A stretch of 64,000 nt of DNA from Gammaproteobacteria bacterium. Its GTDB lineage: Bacteria; Pseudomonadota; Gammaproteobacteria; Burkholderiales; Rhodocyclaceae. The notes under the pieces are model-generated. The model made no database searches and was not told the DNA's origin. It worked only from the letters and a program-made list of their open reading frames with translations. Where the stretch lies: NCBI GenBank assembly GCA_018819515.1, contig JAHJPX010000003.1:56588-120587 (forward strand), in the 5' to 3' direction. Below, in pieces: positions 7,388 to 59,724 of the stretch. Both the position numbers and the translations under genes were made by a program. Every line of letters begins with the position of its first letter. Within the stretch, counting starts at the first letter, position 1.

Positions 7388-9286
7388 TCAATAACCCTCG
7401 CAAAAAGCCTGTACGCGGCTGAAGTCCGCGCGGGCCAAGTCTTCTTCGTGGATCATGAAATACAGCATACCGGTATCCGTTCCCCACATGAATTCGTCGT
7501 CGCTGTCGATCTGGAGCAGTAGACGCCAGCCTCGGGCTTCCCTGCCGTCGTTGGCCAACGCGGCGGCCTGCTTCGCCGGGTCGAACGATTGCAACAAAGT
7601 CGGATATCCGCCGAGGCGGTGTCCGGACGGAAGTCCTTCGGGAAAACGGCTATCGAGGAAATTCTGATATTCCGCAACCTCATTGTCGGGAAGCAGGTGT
7701 GCTTGCACGACGGCCGCATCGATGGCTGGCAGGTCGGTACGATCCTTTGCCAGGCGTATCCCTTGCGGTTTGCGGTTGGTGGCGAGGTGTCGGGCGGCTG
7801 AGGTAGCGACTTCCGGCGTCCAGAGTACGTGCGTGGCGATGGGCTCGAAGTCGTCAGTCAAGGCTTCGCCTTCGTCGTTTTCCGCGGCGTAGAACGCCAG
7901 CTGCCCATGGTCCGGCAAGCCGATGTCCGCCGCGGTAGCGGCCACTTCGGCGAGATCGATCTGACACAAGAGCGTCATCGGCTTGCCGTTGTGCTCAGGA
8001 AGCGGGGTATCCGGCGGCAGGTCGGCGTGGCCGTAGAAGTGCGACCGGCGATCGGGTTTGTATTTGCTCGGGCGCAAGGCGATGGCCGGACGTCGCCAAG
8101 TCTCCAGCAAGGCCTTGTAGACGGGCGGTTGGGTCCGCTTCGCCGCCTTGGCCGGTAGCGCGGCTTGCCATTCCAGGGATGTGGCGGGGAAGCTTTGAAC
8201 CCTGCCTTGGTTCAGGGTGACGAATCCGTCGTCCAGCGCGCAGCTTGCCGGCAGGAAACGGACTTTCACACCTGTTTCTTCCTGGTGCAGCGGCGCTTCC
8301 TCCCGGGGCATGAGGTGATCGACGAGCGAATGCGCCCGTCGGTCGATATCGATCAGCCACGTGTGTTCCCAAGCCATGGCCAGCAGGTAACGACCATTCG
8401 GTGATATCGAAAGCGCGAACTGCGAGCGATGTACCGGTGGCGTGACACGCAGGGCTGCGATGCTGGTGCAGCCATTGTCGATGACTTCGATGAGCCCACT
8501 GTGGTCCGCGGTTGCGAAACGGTCGACATTTGCCGCGGCGGCAATGCCGGCATAGCCCTTGCGGGCGTGACGCGGTTTACCTGCCAGCAGATCGCCTGAC
8601 CCTGCTAGCGGGAAGCTACGAATCTGTCCGGTTTCGCGATTGCGAAGATAAAGATGTGTCGCCGAGAAGGCAACGTCATCCCGGACAAGGTTGTCGATGT
8701 CCGGCAATGCCAGTTCCAATATGGTGCCAGTGAAGCGAAACAGCCGGAAATCGGCATGGATCGCAATCTTGGCAAACCCATTGCCCGAGGCGTACAAGAA
8801 CAGCCCGGTGTCCAGCAGGTAGTCCCGTATGTGGATGCCTAGACGCTGCATGAGGTCATCGGCCGTCTCTTCAGTCAGGACGGTGTTGGTCACAATATCG
8901 ACGACGCGCAAGAGTGCCGGACCGACATTGCCGGCAAAGACCAGTAGAGCGCGTCCCTGGCCGAGATCGCCCGCATGCTGGGGAAGCTGCACGTAGTTGG
9001 CGGTCGCTTGATCCACCTGCCAATTCAGTTTGTCGCCCGCCACGGCAGGCAGGTTAGGGTAGGTGTCGCGCATTTTGGTGATGGTGCGCGTCACGGCTTC
9101 GTGAGATAACGAACGGCTGCACAGGTCGAAGCGATCATGTTGCCGGCCATCGCCGTCGCGCCAATAGGCGTAACCGATATTGCGCGCAGGCAAGGGCAGG
9201 GCGCAGGTACCGCAAAACTCTGTGGTAAGGGCCAGAAGGCCATGTGATCCCAGATTGACGAGGTGTTCGTGAAGTGCGAATTGCAT
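7388..9286 (-). CDS. DUF1963 (YwqG-like) domain protein with long N-terminal region
   Basis: 632-aa ORF. The C-terminal third (LLCQIDL..GQLAFY...GHRLGGYP...LLLQIDSDDEFMWGTDTGMLYFMI) looks like DUF1963. The N-terminal about 400 aa was not recognised. Confidence 0.5.
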   Translation of the reverse strand: MQFALHEHLVNLGSHGLLALTTEFCGTCALPLPARNIGYAYWRDGDGRQHDRFDLCSRSLSHEAVTRTITKMRDTYPNLPAVAGDKLNWQVDQATANYVQLPQHAGDLGQGRALLVFAGNVGPALLRVVDIVTNTVLTEETADDLMQRLGIHIRDYLLDTGLFLYASGNGFAKIAIHADFRLFRFTGTILELALPDIDNLVRDDVAFSATHLYLRNRETGQIRSFPLAGSGDLLAGKPRHARKGYAGIAAAANVDRFATADHSGLIEVIDNGCTSIAALRVTPPVHRSQFALSISPNGRYLLAMAWEHTWLIDIDRRAHSLVDHLMPREEAPLHQEETGVKVRFLPASCALDDGFVTLNQGRVQSFPATSLEWQAALPAKAAKRTQPPVYKALLETWRRPAIALRPSKYKPDRRSHFYGHADLPPDTPLPEHNGKPMTLLCQIDLAEVAATAADIGLPDHGQLAFYAAENDEGEALTDDFEPIATHVLWTPEVATSAARHLATNRKPQGIRLAKDRTDLPAIDAAVVQAHLLPDNEVAEYQNFLDSRFPEGLPSGHRLGGYPTLLQSFDPAKQAAALANDGREARGWRLLLQIDSDDEFMWGTDTGMLYFMIHEEDLARADFSRVQAFCEGY

Positions 9287-9361
9287 GGACTTGATTCCTG
9301 CTATCCGACCGAATGGATGCGGCTGACATCATAGCCGCATCGTCTTCTGGACAGTCCGGGC

Positions 9362-9766
9362 TCAGGTCTTCTTTTCGAGTTTCAGTGAGGCCGAGTTGAT
9401 GCAGTAGCGTTGTCTCGTCGGTGCCGGGCCATCCGGGAAGACGTGGCCGAGATGCGCCCCGCATTGCGCGCAGGTGACCTCGGTGCGGATCATGCCGTGG
9501 CTGCGGTCAACGTGCTCGTCGACGCCGTCCTTGTCCATGGGTGCGGTGAAGCTTGGCCAGCCGCAACCGGCGTCGAACTTGGTTTCCGAGGCGAACAGCG
9601 GCGCGCCGCAGCAGATGCAGCGGAAGGTGCCATCGTCGCGGCTGGCCCAGTACTCACCGGTGAAGGCCCGCTCAGTGCCTTTCTCGCGGGTGACGTGGTA
9701 TTGCATGTCGGTGAGTTGTTCGCGCCATTCGGCGTCGGTCCTAATGACTTTGGCGATCTTGGGCAT
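9362..9766 (-). CDS. msrB: Peptide-methionine (R)-S-oxide reductase
   Basis: 134-aa ORF with CxxC..CxxC zinc site and the GWPSF / RYCINS catalytic motifs. Confidence 0.9.
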
Positions 9767-9809
9767 GGTGGCGTTAACATTCGCATGAAGACGGAGGAAG
9801 AGACAAGAA

Positions 9810-11054
9810 ATGCGTGTATTGGTTCTCGGTGGCGGTCTGGTCGGCGTTGCCTCGGCATGGTACCTGAGCGGGGATGGCCACGAAGTGGCCGTGGTCGATC
9901 GTCAGCCCGGCGTCGCGCTGGAGACGAGCTTCGCCAACGGTGGCCAGATTTCGACCAGCCATGCCGAGCCGTGGGCGAATCCCGGCGCGCCCTGGCTGGC
10001 GCTGCGCTCGCTGGGGCGCGAGGATTCGCCCTTGTTGTGGCGGATGCGCGCCGATCCGGCGCAACTGGTCTGGGGGCTGCGCTTCCTGCGCGAGTGTACG
10101 CCCGGCCGCACGCGGGACAACACCATCGCCATCCTGCGCCTCGCCCTGTACAGCCGGGCGCTGCTGAAGGAACTTCGCGCCTCGCTTGCCCTGGAATACG
10201 ACCAGCAGCCGCGCGGCATCCTGCATTTCTATACCGATCCGGCGGAGTTCGAGCGCGCCGTTCCGCAGGCGGAACTGATGCGCCAATACGGCTGCGAGCG
10301 CGTGATGAAAACGGCGGCCGAATGTCTGGCCATCGAGCCGGCGCTGGCTCGATCGAGCGTTCCCATCGTCGGTGGCACCTACACGGCGGACGACGAATCG
10401 GGCGATGCGCACAAGTTCGTGCAGGCGCTGGCCGAACACGGGAGGGCGCGCGGCGTGGCATTCCGCTTCGGCGCCGGCATCGCGGCGCTGCTGCGGGAGG
10501 GCGATCGCATCGCTGGCGTTCGCTTGGACAATGGCGAGACGCTGACGGCGGACGTCTACGTCGTCGCGCTCGGCAGCTACTCGCCGCTGCTGCTGAAACC
10601 GCTTGGCTTGCGGATTCCCGTCTTTCCGGTGAAGGGCTACTCGGCCACGTTTCCGCTGACGGCCGACAGCATCGCGCCCGTGGTGAGCCTGACCGACGAC
10701 GGCCACAAGATCGTTTTGTCGCGGCTTGGTGATCGCCTGCGCGTGGCCGGCACGGCCGAGTTCACGGGCTACGATACGTCGTTGAACGACGTGCGTTGCC
10801 AGGCGCTGGTGCGCCGGACGCGGGCGATATTTCCGGAATTGAAAAGCGGCGAACCGGAGCTCTGGACCGGCCTGCGGCCATCGACGCCGAGCAACGTGCC
10901 GCTGATCGGCGGCACCCGGCTATCGAATCTCTATCTCAACACGGGCCACGGCACGCTGGGCTGGACCATGGCCTGCGGTACGGGCAGGCTGCTCGCCGAC
11001 CTGCTGTCCGGCCGGGCGCCGGACATCGATCCCTCGGCGTACCGCCACGGCTGA
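9810..11054 (+). CDS. dadA: D-amino acid dehydrogenase small subunit
   Basis: 414-aa [25 protein letters not shown] fold, and NTGHGTLGW near the C-terminus. The last 5 codons and the TGA stop lie inside a 24-nt motif copy. Confidence 0.85.
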
Positions 11055-54719: not shown

Positions 54720-55082
54720 ATGGCCCTCGTCACCTTTTCCAGTCCTTTGCACAAGGACAAGACCGTCTATGCCGTTTCCGGCAGCCACAAGCAGACCATC
54801 CTGCAAATCGCCAAGGACAACCACATCCCCATCGACTTTTCCTGCGGCGACGGCGAGTGCGGTACCTGCCTGGTCAAGGTCAAGGTGATCGACAAGAACA
54901 AGCCGCGCCTGGCCAACCCGCTCAACGAGCGCGAGCAAAAGGTGCTGAAGGAGATGGGCAAGGTCACCCAGGCCGAACTCGACAAGATGCAGGTCGACGA
55001 TTTCGCGCCCAACGAGTGGCGCCTTGCCTGCCAAATGGTCATCCGCGATGAGGACATCCTCGTCGAGTATCCGAGCCGCTGA
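54720..55082 (+). CDS. 2Fe-2S ferredoxin
   Basis: 120-aa ORF with CGDGECGTC...C cluster ligands. Confidence 0.8.
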   Translation: MALVTFSSPLHKDKTVYAVSGSHKQTILQIAKDNHIPIDFSCGDGECGTCLVKVKVIDKNKPRLANPLNEREQKVLKEMGKVTQAELDKMQVDDFAPNEWRLACQMVIRDEDILVEYPSR

Positions 55083-55962
55083 GTTAGCCGAAAGGGCCGA
55101 GGCGGCCTATCTCGGCCTGGCGCTGGGCGACGCGCTGGGCGCCACGGTCGAGTTCATGACGCCGCGGGAGATTCGTGCCCAGTACGGCGTCCACAACGAG
55201 ATCCGCGGTGGCGGCTGGCTGCGCCTGAAACCGGGCGCCGTTACCGACGATACGACCATGAGCCTCGCGCTCGGCGAAGCCATCCTTGCCGATGGCGGTC
55301 GCGTCGAGCCGCTTTCCTGCGCGCGCGCCTTCGATGCCTGGATGCGTGCCAAGCCCGTGGACATCGGCAATACCGTGCGCCGAAATCTTGTCGCTTTCCG
55401 CCGCAGCGGCGAGCCCGTGGCGCCGCCTTCCGAGCACGATGCCGGCAACGGCGCCGCGATGCGCGTGCTGCCGGTGGCGCTGGCGACGCTGGGGCAGGGC
55501 GACGATGTCGTACGCACCGCCGTGCGCGCGCAAGCGCATGTGACGCACAACAATCCCGATTCCGACGCGGCCACCGAATTCCTCGCGCTGGCCGTGCAGG
55601 ACGCAATCGGCGGCGAGAATCTGCGCGGTGTTTATCGGCGGCGCATCCGTCCCATTGTCGACGACAAACCGGCCTTCGCCTACCGCGGCCGCCGGCGCGA
55701 GAATCCGAGTGGCTGGATCGTCGAAACGATGCAGGCCGTGCTACAGGCGCTGCTCGACACGGACAGCTTCGAGGATTGCCTCGTCGACGTCGTCAATCGC
55801 GGCGGCGACGCCGACACCACCGGCGCCATCGCCGGCATGCTCGCCGGCGCGCTCTACGGCCGCGACGCGCTCCCCGCCCGCTGGCTCAAGGCGCTTGACC
55901 CGAAGATGCGCGAGGCCTGTGCTGCGCAGGCGCGGAAACTGGTGGCGCTGACTTCCGCTTGA
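55048..55962 (+). CDS. draG: ADP-ribosyl-[dinitrogen reductase] glycohydrolase
   Basis: Internal Met of track ORF 55024..55962. Has GLALGDALGATVEF, VTDDTTMSL and GGDADTTGAIAGMLAGALYG (ADP-ribosylglycohydrolase family). Last gene of the nifB operon, with a 35-nt overlap on the preceding gene. Confidence 0.8.
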   Translation: MRTSSSSIRAAELAERAEAAYLGLALGDALGATVEFMTPREIRAQYGVHNEIRGGGWLRLKPGAVTDDTTMSLALGEAILADGGRVEPLSCARAFDAWMRAKPVDIGNTVRRNLVAFRRSGEPVAPPSEHDAGNGAAMRVLPVALATLGQGDDVVRTAVRAQAHVTHNNPDSDAATEFLALAVQDAIGGENLRGVYRRRIRPIVDDKPAFAYRGRRRENPSGWIVETMQAVLQALLDTDSFEDCLVDVVNRGGDADTTGAIAGMLAGALYGRDALPARWLKALDPKMREACAAQARKLVALTSA

Positions 55963-55969
55963 ATCAGGT

Positions 55970-55993
55970 GGCGTATCGCCACGGTTGACTTTT
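55970..55993 (+). repeat. 24-nt motif copy, 2 mismatches
   Basis: GGCGTATCGCCACGGTTGACTTTT. Intergenic, 8 nt after the draG stop. Confidence 0.85.
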
Positions 55994-56104
55994 CTTGCTT
56001 GGTTACAATGGCCATGTCATTATCAAGCTCAGCGAGACCTAGGGCTCTTGTCTACTACCACGCTCATTCTCGTTTCGAAAATCTAATATTGGGAAGCTAA
56101 CTAA

Positions 56105-56515
56105 ATGCCACGCAACCCGGAGCTATTCGAACTTACCGCTGGATTGGCAATGGCTCAGCTATACGAGAAATTTCCCATCCCAAAGGACATTGATTTTCGC
56201 GCCCTATACGCCGAGGTATCAGATCGATTCCCTGATGCATCGATGTCGGACTACATCAAGATCTACTTGGTTATACGACACACCTTCGAATGGTTGCAAA
56301 AGGAGGATTTCATTCGCTATGAAAGTATTGGCGAAAACGCAGCGCGCAATTTGCAGCTTACGGAAAAGGGGCTAAGAGCTCTTAAAGCGGTACCGAAAGA
56401 GCTTGATGCACAAAGACAGTCTTTGGCCGAGTTCCTTGTGGAATCCGCAAAGGAAGGGGCTAAGGAGGCCCTAATGAAGGGTGTTGGTTGGCTTCTGGCG
56501 GCTTCCGCAAGCTAG
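56105..56515 (+). CDS. Hypothetical protein (visibly lower G+C)
   Basis: 136-aa ORF, helical-looking, no recognised motif. Flanked by 24-nt motif copies. Confidence 0.5.
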   Translation: MPRNPELFELTAGLAMAQLYEKFPIPKDIDFRALYAEVSDRFPDASMSDYIKIYLVIRHTFEWLQKEDFIRYESIGENAARNLQLTEKGLRALKAVPKELDAQRQSLAEFLVESAKEGAKEALMKGVGWLLAASAS

Positions 56516-56568
56516 TGGTGGCTAATAGCGGGTAGTCGGAAGTAGACAGCGATTCCCGATGTGAGGGT

Positions 56569-56592
56569 GGCGTACCACCACGGCTGACTTTT
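56569..56592 (+). repeat. 24-nt motif copy, 1 mismatch
   Basis: GGCGTACCACCACGGCTGACTTTT. Intergenic, followed by a short hemerythrin-tail relic. Confidence 0.9.
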
Positions 56593-56691
56593 TCCAGTTC
56601 CCCTGCGCCTTGAGCCGCGTTCGCTTATGCTTGCGCAGTTGGAGTTCGATCTGAATGAGCGGCGGCGACAGGTGCAGGTTGGTCGGGAGGA

Positions 56692-57111
56692 ATGTTCATG
56701 AACGCCAAAATGGTGAGGTCGTACGGAGCACGGCTATTGATCGTAGTGGCGGCATTGGCAGGCATGGCCTGCGGCAGGCAGGAACATTCAACGGGCAGTG
56801 CGAAATCCGGGGTCGCCTCGAGTCAACCCGAATACGCGGGGGTGGACGACGCGTCGGGGGACCGGATGTATGTCGTGAAGGATACGATCGACGGCGTGTT
56901 CGCGTTCCGGGACCGATGCCGGGAACTCTGCAAGGGCGAAGATACGTTCTTGGTCTGGAATGACAACGAAAATCACATATGTCGCTGCCCGGATCAGGGG
57001 AAACGGTATCTCCTGAAAATGATGGAAAGCGAGCGCATGACCATGTCGGAGAAGGAATTTCGCGAGGCAATCCGGAAAAGCATTCGGGAAAGGACAAGGC
57101 CCGCGAATTGA
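56692..57111 (+). CDS. Hypothetical secreted protein / possible lipoprotein
   Basis: 139-aa ORF with a signal-like N-terminus (LLIVVAALAGMAC) and four further Cys. The start may be a downstream Met. Confidence 0.5.
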   Translation: MFMNAKMVRSYGARLLIVVAALAGMACGRQEHSTGSAKSGVASSQPEYAGVDDASGDRMYVVKDTIDGVFAFRDRCRELCKGEDTFLVWNDNENHICRCPDQGKRYLLKMMESERMTMSEKEFREAIRKSIRERTRPAN

Positions 57112-57175
57112 GGGGTTGTCGGAGACGGCCGTTACTCCGAGCCATCGGCGACGGACCGCGTTCTCCGCCCAGGGT

Positions 57176-57199
57176 GGCGTCCCGCGACGGCTGACTTTT
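57176..57199 (+). repeat. 24-nt motif copy, 2 mismatches
   Basis: GGCGTCCCGCGACGGCTGACTTTT. Intergenic, followed 25 nt later by the hemerythrin 3' remnant. Confidence 0.85.
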
Positions 57200-57224
57200 C
57201 TACGTCGGCGCCAGCCGCCGCTTA

Positions 57225-57400
57225 CTACTTCCCCTGTGCCTTGAGCCGTGCAGTCAGCGCGCTGTCCATGGTGGTTAGGCGCGTCTTGAACCAGTCGGGC
57301 AGGCTGGCAGCGACGTAGGCGCGGCAGATCATGGCGAGTTCGCCGAGGATGCGCTGGTGGTTGCTTTCGTGTTCGCCGATAGCGGGGAAGCGGCAGCACT
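57225..57400 (-). pseudogene. 3' remnant of a hemerythrin-like gene
   Basis: The minus strand reads in frame CRFPAIGEHESNHQRILGELAMICRAYVAASLPDWFKTRLTTMDSALTARLKAQGK*. This parallels the last 70 codons of the intact gene at 58335-58724, but with a 13-codon internal deletion and no start. Confidence 0.8.
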
Positions 57401-57525: not shown

Positions 57526-58338
57526 ATGTTGCTCCGTAGCCTGACCTCAGTCGCCATCGCCATGTACGCCGCATGCAGCGTCGCCGATGCGCCGATGGCA
57601 GCCGTGGTGATCAACCGGAACCACAGCCACCAGCTCACCTCCTGGAGTGGGCCGTATTTCCCGAGTTTTCCAAAGGGTACGATGCCGCGGGACGGAACCT
57701 GGCTGGCGCTTTACTGCGACGATGCGGGCTGCGAGGTGAGAGAGGCCGCCGTGGCCGTGATGGGCGGCACGATTGCCAACTGTGACGACCGGGAGCAATA
57801 CGCCGAAACCATCTTTGCCGGCGGCGAGCCGGTTGCTGTGTTCAACAGCGTGAATCTTCCACTCGGGAAGGTTGCGACCGCACTGCTGGCCAGGAAGGCG
57901 CCGGCCGCATCCTCGCAATTCGAGGACTTCAGGACGGTGGGCGTCTGGTACGTGCTGTTCAACGGCAAGTACCTGGGCATTTCCTGGGTTCGCATGGTGT
58001 CTCCGCATTCACCGGACGAGTATCTGTACCGATACCATCTCGTCGATGGCGCGACGAAGCAGTTCATCTTCTCCTCCACCGGTGGCAGGGCGGAGGCGGC
58101 CGGCGGTGCCGTTGCGCCATTCGTGCATTGGGCCGGCGATCTGGACCAGGACGGCAAGGTCGACCTGCTGGTGGAAATCCCGTACAGCCTGGATCACGGG
58201 ACGAATGCGCGGTGCCAGGTTTCCCACCGGCTCTACTTGTCATCTTTGGCGCAGGCGCAGGAAGTTCTCCACAAGGCCGCGCAGACTTCCGGGCAGCAGC
58301 CGGCGTGTGCCTGTCGACTCGGTCGAGGCGGCCGCTAG
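57526..58338 (+). CDS. Hypothetical secreted protein
   Basis: Internal Met (MLLRSLTSVAIAMYAACSVADA signal-like) of track ORF 57331..58338. Has a DLDQDGKVDLL calcium/FG-GAP-like motif. The first 65 codons of the track ORF run antisense through the hemerythrin remnant, so they were excluded. Confidence 0.5.
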   Translation: MLLRSLTSVAIAMYAACSVADAPMAAVVINRNHSHQLTSWSGPYFPSFPKGTMPRDGTWLALYCDDAGCEVREAAVAVMGGTIANCDDREQYAETIFAGGEPVAVFNSVNLPLGKVATALLARKAPAASSQFEDFRTVGVWYVLFNGKYLGISWVRMVSPHSPDEYLYRYHLVDGATKQFIFSSTGGRAEAAGGAVAPFVHWAGDLDQDGKVDLLVEIPYSLDHGTNARCQVSHRLYLSSLAQAQEVLHKAAQTSGQQPACACRLGRGGR

Positions 58339-58724
58339 GTACCCTGCGCCTTCAGCCGCGCCGCCAGCGCGCTGTCCATGGTGGCGAGGTGCGTCTTGAA
58401 CCAGTCGGGCAGGCCGACGGCGACGTAGGCGCGGGCGAGGCCGAGGCGACCCTTGGCGACGCCGCGGCCGATCTGGGCGAGTTCGCCGAGGATGCGCTGG
58501 TGGTCACTTTCGTGTTCGCCGATGGCGGGAAAGCGACAGGCACGCATCAGGCGGCCTTCGTTTTCGAAGTGGGCGCGGGTGTGCAGGGCGAGCGCGTGAA
58601 AGCGGCGCGGGAAGTCCTCGTCGCTGGCCTTGGTGAGAGCCGCGAGTTCATGTACGAAGTCTTCGTGGGTAGCGTCCATGTCGGCGACGCCGACGGCGTG
58701 CAGTTCGGGTTTCCAGTTCAGCAT
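58335..58724 (-). CDS. Hemerythrin-like (HHE cation-binding) protein
   Basis: Internal Met (MLNWKPELHAVGVADMDATHEDFVHEL..HTRAHFENE..EHESDHQRIL..WFKTHLATMD) of track ORF 58335..59615. 7-nt overlap with the upstream SIR2-like gene. Confidence 0.8.
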   Translation of the reverse strand: MLNWKPELHAVGVADMDATHEDFVHELAALTKASDEDFPRRFHALALHTRAHFENEGRLMRACRFPAIGEHESDHQRILGELAQIGRGVAKGRLGLARAYVAVGLPDWFKTHLATMDSALAARLKAQGT

Positions 58725-59581
58725 GTCACGGCCTCCGAAGTTTCCACACTTGCGCCCATCAACTCGCTGACGTTGCCCGCGACGATCTCGATGCCCATCT
58801 TGGCCAGAAAGCGCTTTTCCTTGTCGGTCGGTTGCTCGATCAGCGCCCAGCCGGTGGGGCCGGTGGCGGCGCCGTAGACGATGTCGGACATGACCATGCG
58901 CTCGCTGTCGCGGTTGAAGCGCATGCCGAGGAAGAGGTAGCGCTTGTCGCGGCGCAGTTCCTTGACGTAGGCGGGCACGGCGAAGCCGCCCATGAGTTCC
59001 GTGATGTAGTCGACGTAGTCGGCGTCGGAGGCGATGTAGGTCGACTCCGGCCTGGGCGAACCCATGGGCTTGAACAGCAGTGGCAGGCCGAGGGCGGCCT
59101 GGCCGGGCAGGATGGCGGTGTAGTGCGCGCCGTCCCAAGCGAACAGCTTGAAACGGAAGTCGGTGCCGCCGAGACGCGCGCAGCCGAGCACCAGGGTGTG
59201 CGGCACGTCGGCGTAGGAATCGAGCAACTGCGTGTCGCGGTTGATGTCGATGACGTAGGCGGGCTTGATGGACTTCAGCCAGTCGTGCACGGCGCTGCGC
59301 GTCCAGGGTGCGTTGTAGGTGGCGTCGAGGAACTTCGTTACCGCCGAACGGCCGCGCTTGAGTTCGATGTTCATCGCCGCTCGCGGGAATTCGTACATCA
59401 GTTTGGGCGACATCGGCTTGCCCCCGTTCATGGCAAGGATTAGTTCGTCGCTGGTGGCGGGCATCGGGGCGCCGGTTTCGGTGTGGCGGACATCGGCCAG
59501 CACGCCGGGGCCGAGATAGGGAACGACGCTGCCGTCGGCGAGGCCGGCGAGCAGGTCCTGACGGGTTTTTGTAGTAATCAT
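58718..59581 (-). CDS. SIR2-like (SIR2_2-type) domain protein, catalytic His apparently absent
   Basis: 287-aa ORF. The motif order PYLGPGV / VIDINRDTQLLDSY / LLFKPMGS / SDADYVDYI / YLFLGMRFNRD parallels the FLGAG / TTNYD / KLHGS / DY / LFLGYS blocks of SIR2_2 proteins as I remember them. Not verified by search. Confidence 0.45.
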   Translation of the reverse strand: MITTKTRQDLLAGLADGSVVPYLGPGVLADVRHTETGAPMPATSDELILAMNGGKPMSPKLMYEFPRAAMNIELKRGRSAVTKFLDATYNAPWTRSAVHDWLKSIKPAYVIDINRDTQLLDSYADVPHTLVLGCARLGGTDFRFKLFAWDGAHYTAILPGQAALGLPLLFKPMGSPRPESTYIASDADYVDYITELMGGFAVPAYVKELRRDKRYLFLGMRFNRDSERMVMSDIVYGAATGPTGWALIEQPTDKEKRFLAKMGIEIVAGNVSELMGASVETSEAVTC

Positions 59582-59724
59582 GCCAATCTCCTTGGGGTCG
59601 AGAGATGACTAGCAAGAATCCGACCTGAAAGATTCGCCTTTTCCCCTGGGGGTTTTCAAGTGGCGTCGCCGTGCAACCACAGATTGACCTGCCGTACCGC
59701 TTTCAGATAATCGCAGGGCGGTAA

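Follow-up and report, generated by a model that had tools for sequence, protein, structure and literature searches.

The closest described relative of the gene considered here is pnfA, a nitrogen fixation accessory gene named by Yan et al. in 2010 (BMC Genomics 11:11, PMC2820453) for PST1325 of Pseudomonas stutzeri A1501. It encodes a 31.7-kDa product, is divergent from nifHDK, and is preceded by a -24/-12 promoter and a TGT-N10-ACA box; its expression depends on NifA and RpoN, is induced 9.7-fold under N2 fixation, and is repressed by ammonium shock (PMC2820453). In A1325, a complemented nonpolar pnfA mutant, nifH mRNA was unchanged; nitrogenase activity was 23% of wild type at 0.5% O2 and wild-type-like anaerobically, nitrate-supported anaerobic fixation was lost, and the authors suggested that PnfA acts in electron transfer or protects against oxygen (PMC2820453). 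PnfA homologs were reported only in diazotrophs (Azotobacter vinelandii, 72%; Azoarcus BH72, 55%; Dechloromonas aromatica, 54%; Halorhodospira, 49%), with a second subfamily at ~20% identity (PMC2820453). Here, we describe a gene for a SIR2-like protein of 287 amino acids (aa) (P0001), very probably a pnfA ortholog, and the gene for a 129-aa hemerythrin-like protein (P0002) that overlaps its 3' end. Both lie in a 64,000-nucleotide stretch of a Rhodocyclaceae genome (Gammaproteobacteria bacterium, assembly GCA_018819515.1, contig JAHJPX010000003.1, here G000:C5:56588-120587), referred to below as the window; positions are in window numbering unless a contig is given.

Members of the family have since been recorded under another name. 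PST_1325 was later called a "SIR2 family protein" (PMC11332353), a label that has also been used in Rhodovulum (PMC9412634), Thalassolituus (bioRxiv 2026 preprint), and Paenirhizobium (PMC13455631). In Rhodobacter capsulatus, the Rcc03262 protein, encoded in the operon nifB1-rcc03265-nifZT-rcc03262, is absent from a nifA mutant (PMC6925177), and ZMO1821 of Zymomonas mobilis, which was taken for a deacetylase, is induced under N2 fixation (PMC8600466). In "Candidatus Thalassolituus haligoni," a hemerythrin of the nif cluster carries the label "O2 defense" (PMC11290528). The preliminary description of the window knew of no SIR2-plus-hemerythrin module; the SIR2-like gene belongs to the pnfA family of Yan et al., and the nif islands of R. 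capsulatus, Z. mobilis, Rhizobium etli, and P. stutzeri each have it annotated as a SIR2 family protein. The family is already known, having been named in 2010 and being routinely annotated, and for this window our results are mainly a corrected annotation, not a discovery. What is new is that annotation, a correction concerning draT, and the direct hemerythrin coupling as a mark of a clade without X185, a 185-aa protein encoded next to hemerythrin elsewhere.

We propose, with a probability of roughly 60%, that the pair belongs to the NifA regulon and encodes a nonhydrolytic nucleotide-binding helper together with an O2-binding partner, which would sustain nitrogenase when oxygen is present. 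The present analysis supplies the identity and coupling of the genes, the protein fold, the loss of catalytic residues, the nif-specific distribution, and the type of promoter; NifA and RpoN dependence and the oxygen-dependent phenotype are taken from the literature. Orthology with PST1325, which makes the 287-aa gene a pnfA-type nif accessory gene, has very high probability because Dechloromonas and Azoarcus homologs were reported for PnfA (PMC2820453), the Dechloromonas loci that we collected are 64 to 67% identical to P0001, and size, position, and promoter match. As in P. stutzeri, the protein is of ~31.5 kDa, the family occurs almost only in proteobacterial diazotrophs and is linked to nifHDK, a distant second subfamily exists, and a -24/-12 promoter is present, with the TGT-N10-ACA box found in relatives. 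The locus differs from that of P. stutzeri in that draT and inserted genes separate the gene from nifH, that the gene is directly coupled to hemerythrin, and that its shortened upstream region has no canonical NifA box.

The 287-aa protein carries the sequence blocks of SIR2_2-type domains in the order that the preliminary description gave (PYLGPGV at residues 21 to 27, INRD at 113 to 116, KPMGS at 171 to 175, DADY at 186 to 189, and LFLGMRFNRD at 216 to 225), and residues 163 to 266 match the Pfam family SIR2_2 (PF13289) at 35.2 bits, above the gathering score of 24.5. No NCBIfam model matched it, nor did the sirtuin family PF02146 at an E value of ≤1, and because there are just two cysteines (C134 and C287), the protein is without a Cys4 zinc module. 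A sequence search against PDB chains returned chance matches only (E > 0.4); a fold search was used instead. The AlphaFold2 model had a predicted local distance difference test score (pLDDT) of 84 and a predicted template modeling score (pTM) of 0.85, and its top Foldseek matches in the PDB were the SIR2 domain of DSR2 (E = 3.5e-9; template modeling [TM] score, 0.60 to 0.66; ~14% identity) and KomC. The assignment of a SIR2 Rossmann fold holds for the predicted structure. With DSR2, ThsA (of Thoeris), and KomC, the protein shares the SIR2_2-type Rossmann fold (probability of 1.0 for the best structural matches). It differs from them in its low sequence identity, in having Met in place of the catalytic H171 of DSR2, in lacking sensor or partner domains and any PADLOC match, and in a nif-specific distribution where that of defense SIR2 proteins is patchy. 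Domain fusions were sought among representatives at 50% identity: P0126, P0130, and P0198 had no further Pfam domain, P0196 (with DUF1646) looks like a chimera or a miscall, and P0250 (Fic plus SIR2_2) falls in another branch; none of these proved informative.

In a profile alignment with the genome's own ThsA/Dsr-like SIR2 protein, LFKPMGS pairs with VLKAHGT and IDINRD with LTQNVD, placing M173 opposite the catalytic His, as had been suggested from the motif. Among 90 orthologs, 85 have Met at position 173, the others having Leu (3), Val (1), or Thr (1) and none His; of 28 distant-branch members, 16 have Leu and 2 have His at this site. N114 is kept in all 90 orthologs and is Trp in 16 of the 28 distant members, and E73, R78, G174, D188, and P203 are invariant across all 118 sequences. 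Because the catalytic His is lost from every ortholog, PnfA is unlikely to have been conserved for cleaving NAD+ or deacylating proteins in the canonical way, and the NAD-consuming role raised in the preliminary description is unlikely for the same reason. The literature often takes pnfA-type proteins for lysine deacetylases, and these residue data argue against that view.

The distribution of the family ties it to nitrogen fixation. More than 4,300 homologs of P0001 were found in a large protein collection, many of them 70 to 90% identical, and because they collapse to 252 clusters at 50% identity, the family is compact. With one genome scanned per species, 385 loci were found; the 80 best were fetched and searched by tblastn with the Nif and Dra proteins of this genome, and the fetched flanks of 68 carried nifH/D/K, nifB, draT, or draG. 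Most often the order, seen also in an annotated relative (L001), is nifKDH <- -> draT-pnfA-(X185)-(Hr) <- draG-fer2-fer2-flavodiiron-...-nifB, where Hr is the hemerythrin gene. In ~19 of the 80 loci, pnfA follows draT on the same strand at a distance of 80 to 230 nucleotides (nt); where draT is missing, the ortholog is divergent from nifH at ~0.5 kb (L088 to L093). PnfA is 57 to 90% identical across Beta- and Gammaproteobacteria in this fixed nif position.

Counts over whole genomes agree with this picture; they were made in a class sample (400 genomes drawn evenly) and a phylum sample (391 genomes) and, the sampled genomes being mutually related, are given without a test statistic. The class sample has the family in 31 genomes (22 with orthologs at 57 to 65% identity and 9 with the distant branch at 26 to 32%) and a true nifH in 40. 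All but two carriers (29/31) have nifH, the exceptions being a 74%-complete assembly with draT and one assembly with its pnfA gene at a contig end, so that just 2 of ~360 genomes without nifH carry the family. In the phylum sample, 22 of 24 carriers have nifH. Presence of draT is a poorer companion: it was found in 25 genomes of the class sample, 12 of the 22 ortholog genomes have it and 10 do not, and 8 genomes with nifH and draT are without the family. Genes of the distant branch are found downstream of nifB, following nifZ and nifT, as in R. etli p42d (nifA-nifB-fdx-nifZ-nifT-"SIR2 family protein," the last being RHE_RS30545), where no draT or draG was found within a 14.8-kb stretch around the gene; RHE_RS30545 is 31% identical to P0001 (E = 1e-23) over 92% of the length. 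Together with Rcc03262 and ZMO1821, it represents alphaproteobacterial nif-island proteins of the same family that lie in nif operons and are NifA dependent or induced under N2 fixation. They differ from P0001 in belonging to the distant branch, in their placement after nifB-fdx-nifZ-nifT, in the residue at the Asn position (usually Trp) and at position 173 (usually Leu), and in that no hemerythrin partner was seen. Judged from these gene distributions, the family is diazotroph restricted and not DraT specific. Two phylum-sample genomes of one family (G469 and G597, f265) have a pnfA ortholog and no nifH at an E value of ≤1e-90; among seven sampled relatives of these two with pnfA, five have nifH.

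The promoter is of the sigma-54 type. An alignment of 10 upstream regions (the window and nine relatives) identified a -24/-12 element, AGGTCGGATTCTTGCT in the window, ~30 nt ahead of the start codon; its GG and TTGC columns do not vary, nor does the GGAGA of the pnfA ribosome-binding site, and no sigma-70-like site was found on the strand of the element. In 65 of 75 loci, a NifA box, TGT-N10-ACA and typically TGTCGCAAACCCGACA, precedes the start codon by ~100 to 120 nt, and it is kept where draT is just 80 to 200 nt upstream as well as at loci where pnfA lies outside any nif cluster. In the window and in L009, a close relative, a degenerate variant, CAATnTGTGGT...GGCGACGC, stands where other relatives have the canonical TGTCGCAAACCCGACA, and the upstream region in the window has been shortened by a divergent inserted gene. 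Because this region has the degenerate box only, we infer NifA dependence of this copy by homology. The pair may be regarded as a nif accessory operon predicted to be under sigma-54 control and, by homology, also under NifA.

The second gene of the pair would supply the oxygen-binding component. P0002 scores above the cutoffs of Pfam Hemerythrin (PF01814; 35.9 versus 25.3 bits) and TIGR02481 (59.2 versus 51.75 bits) and matches NF002522 at 90.8 bits, and its di-iron ligands H20, H52, E56, H71, H75, H111, and D116 all align with those of DcrH-Hr (PDB 2avk), with which it shares the four-helix HHE domain and the full H-HxxxE-HxxxH-HxxxxD ligand set. The hemerythrin-like character given to it from the sequence alone was borne out. 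It resembles the hemerythrin of "Ca. Thalassolituus haligoni" (PMC11290528) in its nif-cluster location and differs from other single-domain bacteriohemerythrins in the translational coupling of its gene to pnfA; its O2 binding is putative. Both open reading frames and their 7-nt stop/start overlap were found as previously described (Table 1), and the overlap points to translational coupling of hemerythrin to pnfA in this clade.

This direct coupling is not the general state. Hemerythrin genes were scored on the same strand, downstream, and within 3 kb of pnfA, which left 72 decidable loci of the 80 fetched; 35 of these have one. The two genes are directly adjacent, with spacing from a 4-nt overlap to a 33-nt gap, in 9 loci, all from the closest Rhodocyclaceae relatives; 22 have the X185 gene in between, and 4 have another short gap. 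X185 homologs occur in ~28 of loci L008 to L087 (for example, L073:10865-11422, plus strand). The gene is conserved and lies between pnfA and hemerythrin in Dechloromonas, Azonexus, Sedimenticolaceae, and others, translationally abutted to hemerythrin, and the two stay abutted even where they are 2.7 to 4.3 kb away from pnfA (L039 and L052). X185 had no significant match to Pfam, NCBIfam, or PDB sequences, its AlphaFold2 model (pLDDT of 92) had no significant match among PDB folds (best Foldseek E = 0.03; TM score, 0.28), and it was not found in the genome studied here. Because X185 and hemerythrin travel together elsewhere and this genome is without X185, the direct pnfA-hemerythrin coupling is a clade-specific state, with loss of X185 as the probable route. 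A hemerythrin gene is likewise found with pnfA at the nif locus L088, which has no draT or draG in the stretch fetched. The preliminary description had presented SIR2 plus hemerythrin as a pair; the survey upholds the association in about half of the loci and restricts the direct pairing to one clade.

In the mechanism that we favor, PnfA would bind either a Nif partner or a nucleotide such as NAD(H) or ADP-ribose and would neither cleave NAD+ nor deacylate proteins. We see it as a binder and not a hydrolase because the His is replaced family-wide and the rhizobial branch is also without the catalytic Asn; we infer both this nonhydrolytic binding and any functional contact of PnfA with hemerythrin. 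PnfA would act posttranscriptionally, keeping nitrogenase supplied or protected while respiration runs, a placement suggested because the P. stutzeri mutant has normal nifH transcription and lowered activity under microaerobic but not anaerobic conditions. The hemerythrin, presumably made from the pnfA transcript, is a plausible O2-binding or O2-sensing partner in this task, and its recurrence beside pnfA fits the published oxygen-dependent phenotype and yields a concrete hypothesis. In a more specific version, PnfA would be a pseudoenzyme of SIR2 fold, lacking the His and sensing NAD(H) or a derivative of ADP-ribose, and would form, with X185 and hemerythrin (here, hemerythrin alone), an oxygen-responsive module adjusting the electron supply or protection of nitrogenase after transcription; this version is speculative, and we consider it doubtful. 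If true, it would add an uncharacterized control layer in roughly half or more of the sampled proteobacterial diazotrophs, built on a fold otherwise used for phage defense. Genes of the pnfA type occur in the nif clusters of many diazotrophs, including P. stutzeri, Azotobacter, Dechloromonas, Rhodobacter, rhizobia, and Zymomonas, and, as known from P. stutzeri A1325, matter for nitrogenase activity when oxygen is present, which is of relevance to the engineering of nitrogen fixation into aerobic hosts, where there is demand for accessory genes that keep nitrogenase working under oxygen.

Several observations weigh against this proposal. Binding without catalysis is deduced solely from residue loss, and since the ortholog branch has kept N114, D116, and the G-x-G loop, an unusual catalytic mechanism may exist. 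About half of the loci have no hemerythrin, most of those that do couple it to X185 and not to pnfA, and the direct pairing here may be a by-product of X185 loss. The canonical TGT-N10-ACA box was not found in the window's 143-nt pnfA upstream region (59582-59724). Nor is pnfA a core requirement, since the family is missing from 11 of the 40 class-sample genomes and 26 of the 48 phylum-sample genomes that have nifH. Finally, the orthology with PST1325 draws on the published description of that gene, whose own sequence stands outside the alignment: a homolog search seeded with a high-G+C gammaproteobacterial ortholog had no Pseudomonas or Azotobacter among its best 120 matches, and a search with nifH DNA for an engineered Escherichia coli strain bearing the A1501 nif island gave no match.

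PnfA could be an active NAD+-dependent enzyme, a lysine deacylase or an ADP-ribosyltransferase/NADase, that modifies NifH or other Nif proteins through noncanonical residues. The SIR2 fold and the N114, D116, and glycine loop conserved in 90/90 orthologs would suit such an enzyme, as would the acetylation of nitrogenase proteins in Z. mobilis, where ZMO1821 is coinduced (PMC8600466), and the position of draT, itself encoding an NAD+-using enzyme, beside pnfA in many genomes. We nevertheless regard it as unlikely, since the catalytic His is missing from all orthologs and from 26 of the 28 distant members, and 16 of these 28 have Trp for Asn; the protein has neither a sirtuin match nor a zinc module, and the family-invariant E73, R78, D188, and P203 differ from the SIR2 catalytic set. 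Less probable still is that the pair is a dedicated accessory of the DraT/DraG switch, gating DraT by oxygen, for example, or reading or buffering ADP-ribosyl-NifH. A SIR2 fold could bind NAD+ or ADP-ribose, and pnfA does stand close behind draT in ~19/80 loci and between draT and draG in most; however, almost half of the ortholog genomes of the class sample (10/22) have no draT, in which case pnfA adjoins nifH, the 8 genomes with nifH and draT but without the family show the converse, and the spacer between draT and the pnfA start codon holds a separate NifA box and sigma-54 promoter for pnfA. The rhizobial branch, placed after nifZ-nifT and, in R. etli p42d, away from any draT or draG within 14.8 kb, also speaks against such a dependence. 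The idea of an O2-gated, NAD-linked module tied to nitrogen fixation, one of two readings in the preliminary description, is therefore right in outline in its nif connection, which distribution, position, and promoter support; NAD consumption is unlikely, and the pair does not behave as an add-on to the DraT/DraG switch.

The other of these readings, a small SIR2-type antiphage module parked in an accessory island, has next to no probability. The closest solved structures are those of the defense NADases DSR2 and KomC, and the flanks of the pair in this genome are low-G+C insertions of unknown genes. Against this, P0001 had no PADLOC match at an E value of ≤1, whereas the genome's other SIR2_2 gene, which served as a control, matched the ThsA (62.8 bits), LmuA, Dsr1, and Dsr2 models; no partner genes such as TIR, HerA, or pAgo are present, the neighbors being nif and dra genes; the catalytic His is missing; and the high identity in a fixed nif position, the diazotroph-restricted occurrence, and the NifA/sigma-54 type promoter are those of a nif gene. 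We therefore rejected the antiphage module as contradicted by the missing PADLOC match, the diazotroph-specific distribution, the promoter, and the lost His. The second SIR2_2 protein, of 289 aa and encoded on contig G000:C14 (L005:1390-2259, minus strand), keeps the catalytic Asn and His and, by its profile matches, is a defense-type SIR2 protein unrelated to the nif copy.

Table 1. Features of the pnfA-hemerythrin pair and its surroundings in window coordinates
Feature	Position	Strand	Basis
draG, convergent with the pair, last in the row nifB-fdx-arsC-like-flavodiiron-fer2-fer2-draG	55024-55962	plus	Open reading frame
Decayed partial duplicate of the 3' part of the hemerythrin gene, in inserted DNA between draG and the hemerythrin gene	57225-57396	minus	Repeat search, families D1 and D2
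Single-domain bacteriohemerythrin gene (P0002), 129 aa, seven predicted di-iron ligands	58335-58724	minus	Open reading frame, PF01814, TIGR02481, NF002522
7-nt overlap ATGCTGA (hemerythrin ATG 58724-58722, pnfA TGA 58720-58718)	58718-58724	minus	Read from sequence
Hemerythrin ribosome-binding site GGAGG, within the pnfA 3' end, 8 nt upstream of ATG	58732-58736	minus	Read from sequence
pnfA-type nif accessory gene (P0001; very probable), 287 aa, predicted SIR2_2 fold, Met173 at the catalytic-His position	58718-59581	minus	Open reading frame and translation
pnfA ribosome-binding site AAGGAGA	59587-59593	minus	Read from sequence
Sigma-54 type -24/-12 element AGGTCGGATTCTTGCT (GG-N10-GC)	59611-59626	minus	Alignment with relatives

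The neighborhood of the pair also changes how its draG is to be understood. The 2.4 kb between the end of draG and the hemerythrin gene was given correctly in the preliminary description, but draG is not without its partner: a full-length draT (PF07357, 325 bits) was found at G000:C5:122728-123492 on the minus strand, corresponding to window position ~66,100 to 66,900, past the window end. It lies ~6.5 kb beyond the SIR2-like gene and is divergent from nifHDK, and the "orphan" draG is a window-edge effect. The local order is nifB...draG rightwards, inserted genes, hemerythrin and pnfA leftwards, inserted genes and a major facilitator superfamily transporter, draT leftwards, and nifHDK rightwards. 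The nifB...draG row, with the Pfam domain ADP_ribosyl_GH, is also found in relative L001, and the convergent arrangement of draG is conserved in most of the 80 loci (tblastn).

Insertions between draT and pnfA are found in other genomes as well. In some Rhodocyclaceae (L001, positions 8228-9870; also L013 and L021), three genes, encoding a 194-aa protein of unknown function, a 260-aa sigma-70 family factor, and an 83-aa protein of unknown function, are inserted there. Two class-sample genomes have draT and pnfA within a single open frame without interruption (G355:C79:2115-4060, 680 aa; G330:C6:54872-56619, 623 aa); since relatives carry the NifA box and promoter in that spacer, we take the shared frame as probably chance in G+C-rich DNA rather than a fusion.

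The inserted DNA between draG and the hemerythrin gene contains several repeats. The decayed duplicate listed in Table 1 is 86 to 90% identical to positions 58335-58539, a shorter relic of the 3' part of the hemerythrin gene lies at 56591-56617, and a 29-nt motif occurs at 55965, 56564, and 57171, each time preceding a small low-G+C gene. The repeats and relics in 55965-57400 suggest that DNA has inserted repeatedly where the hemerythrin gene ends (3' side). Positions 57025-57050, within an inserted open reading frame (56692-57111), match 58884-58909 in inverted orientation over 26 nt (85%); the latter stretch of pnfA encodes SERMVMSD, and the match may be a pnfA relic or a chance similarity.

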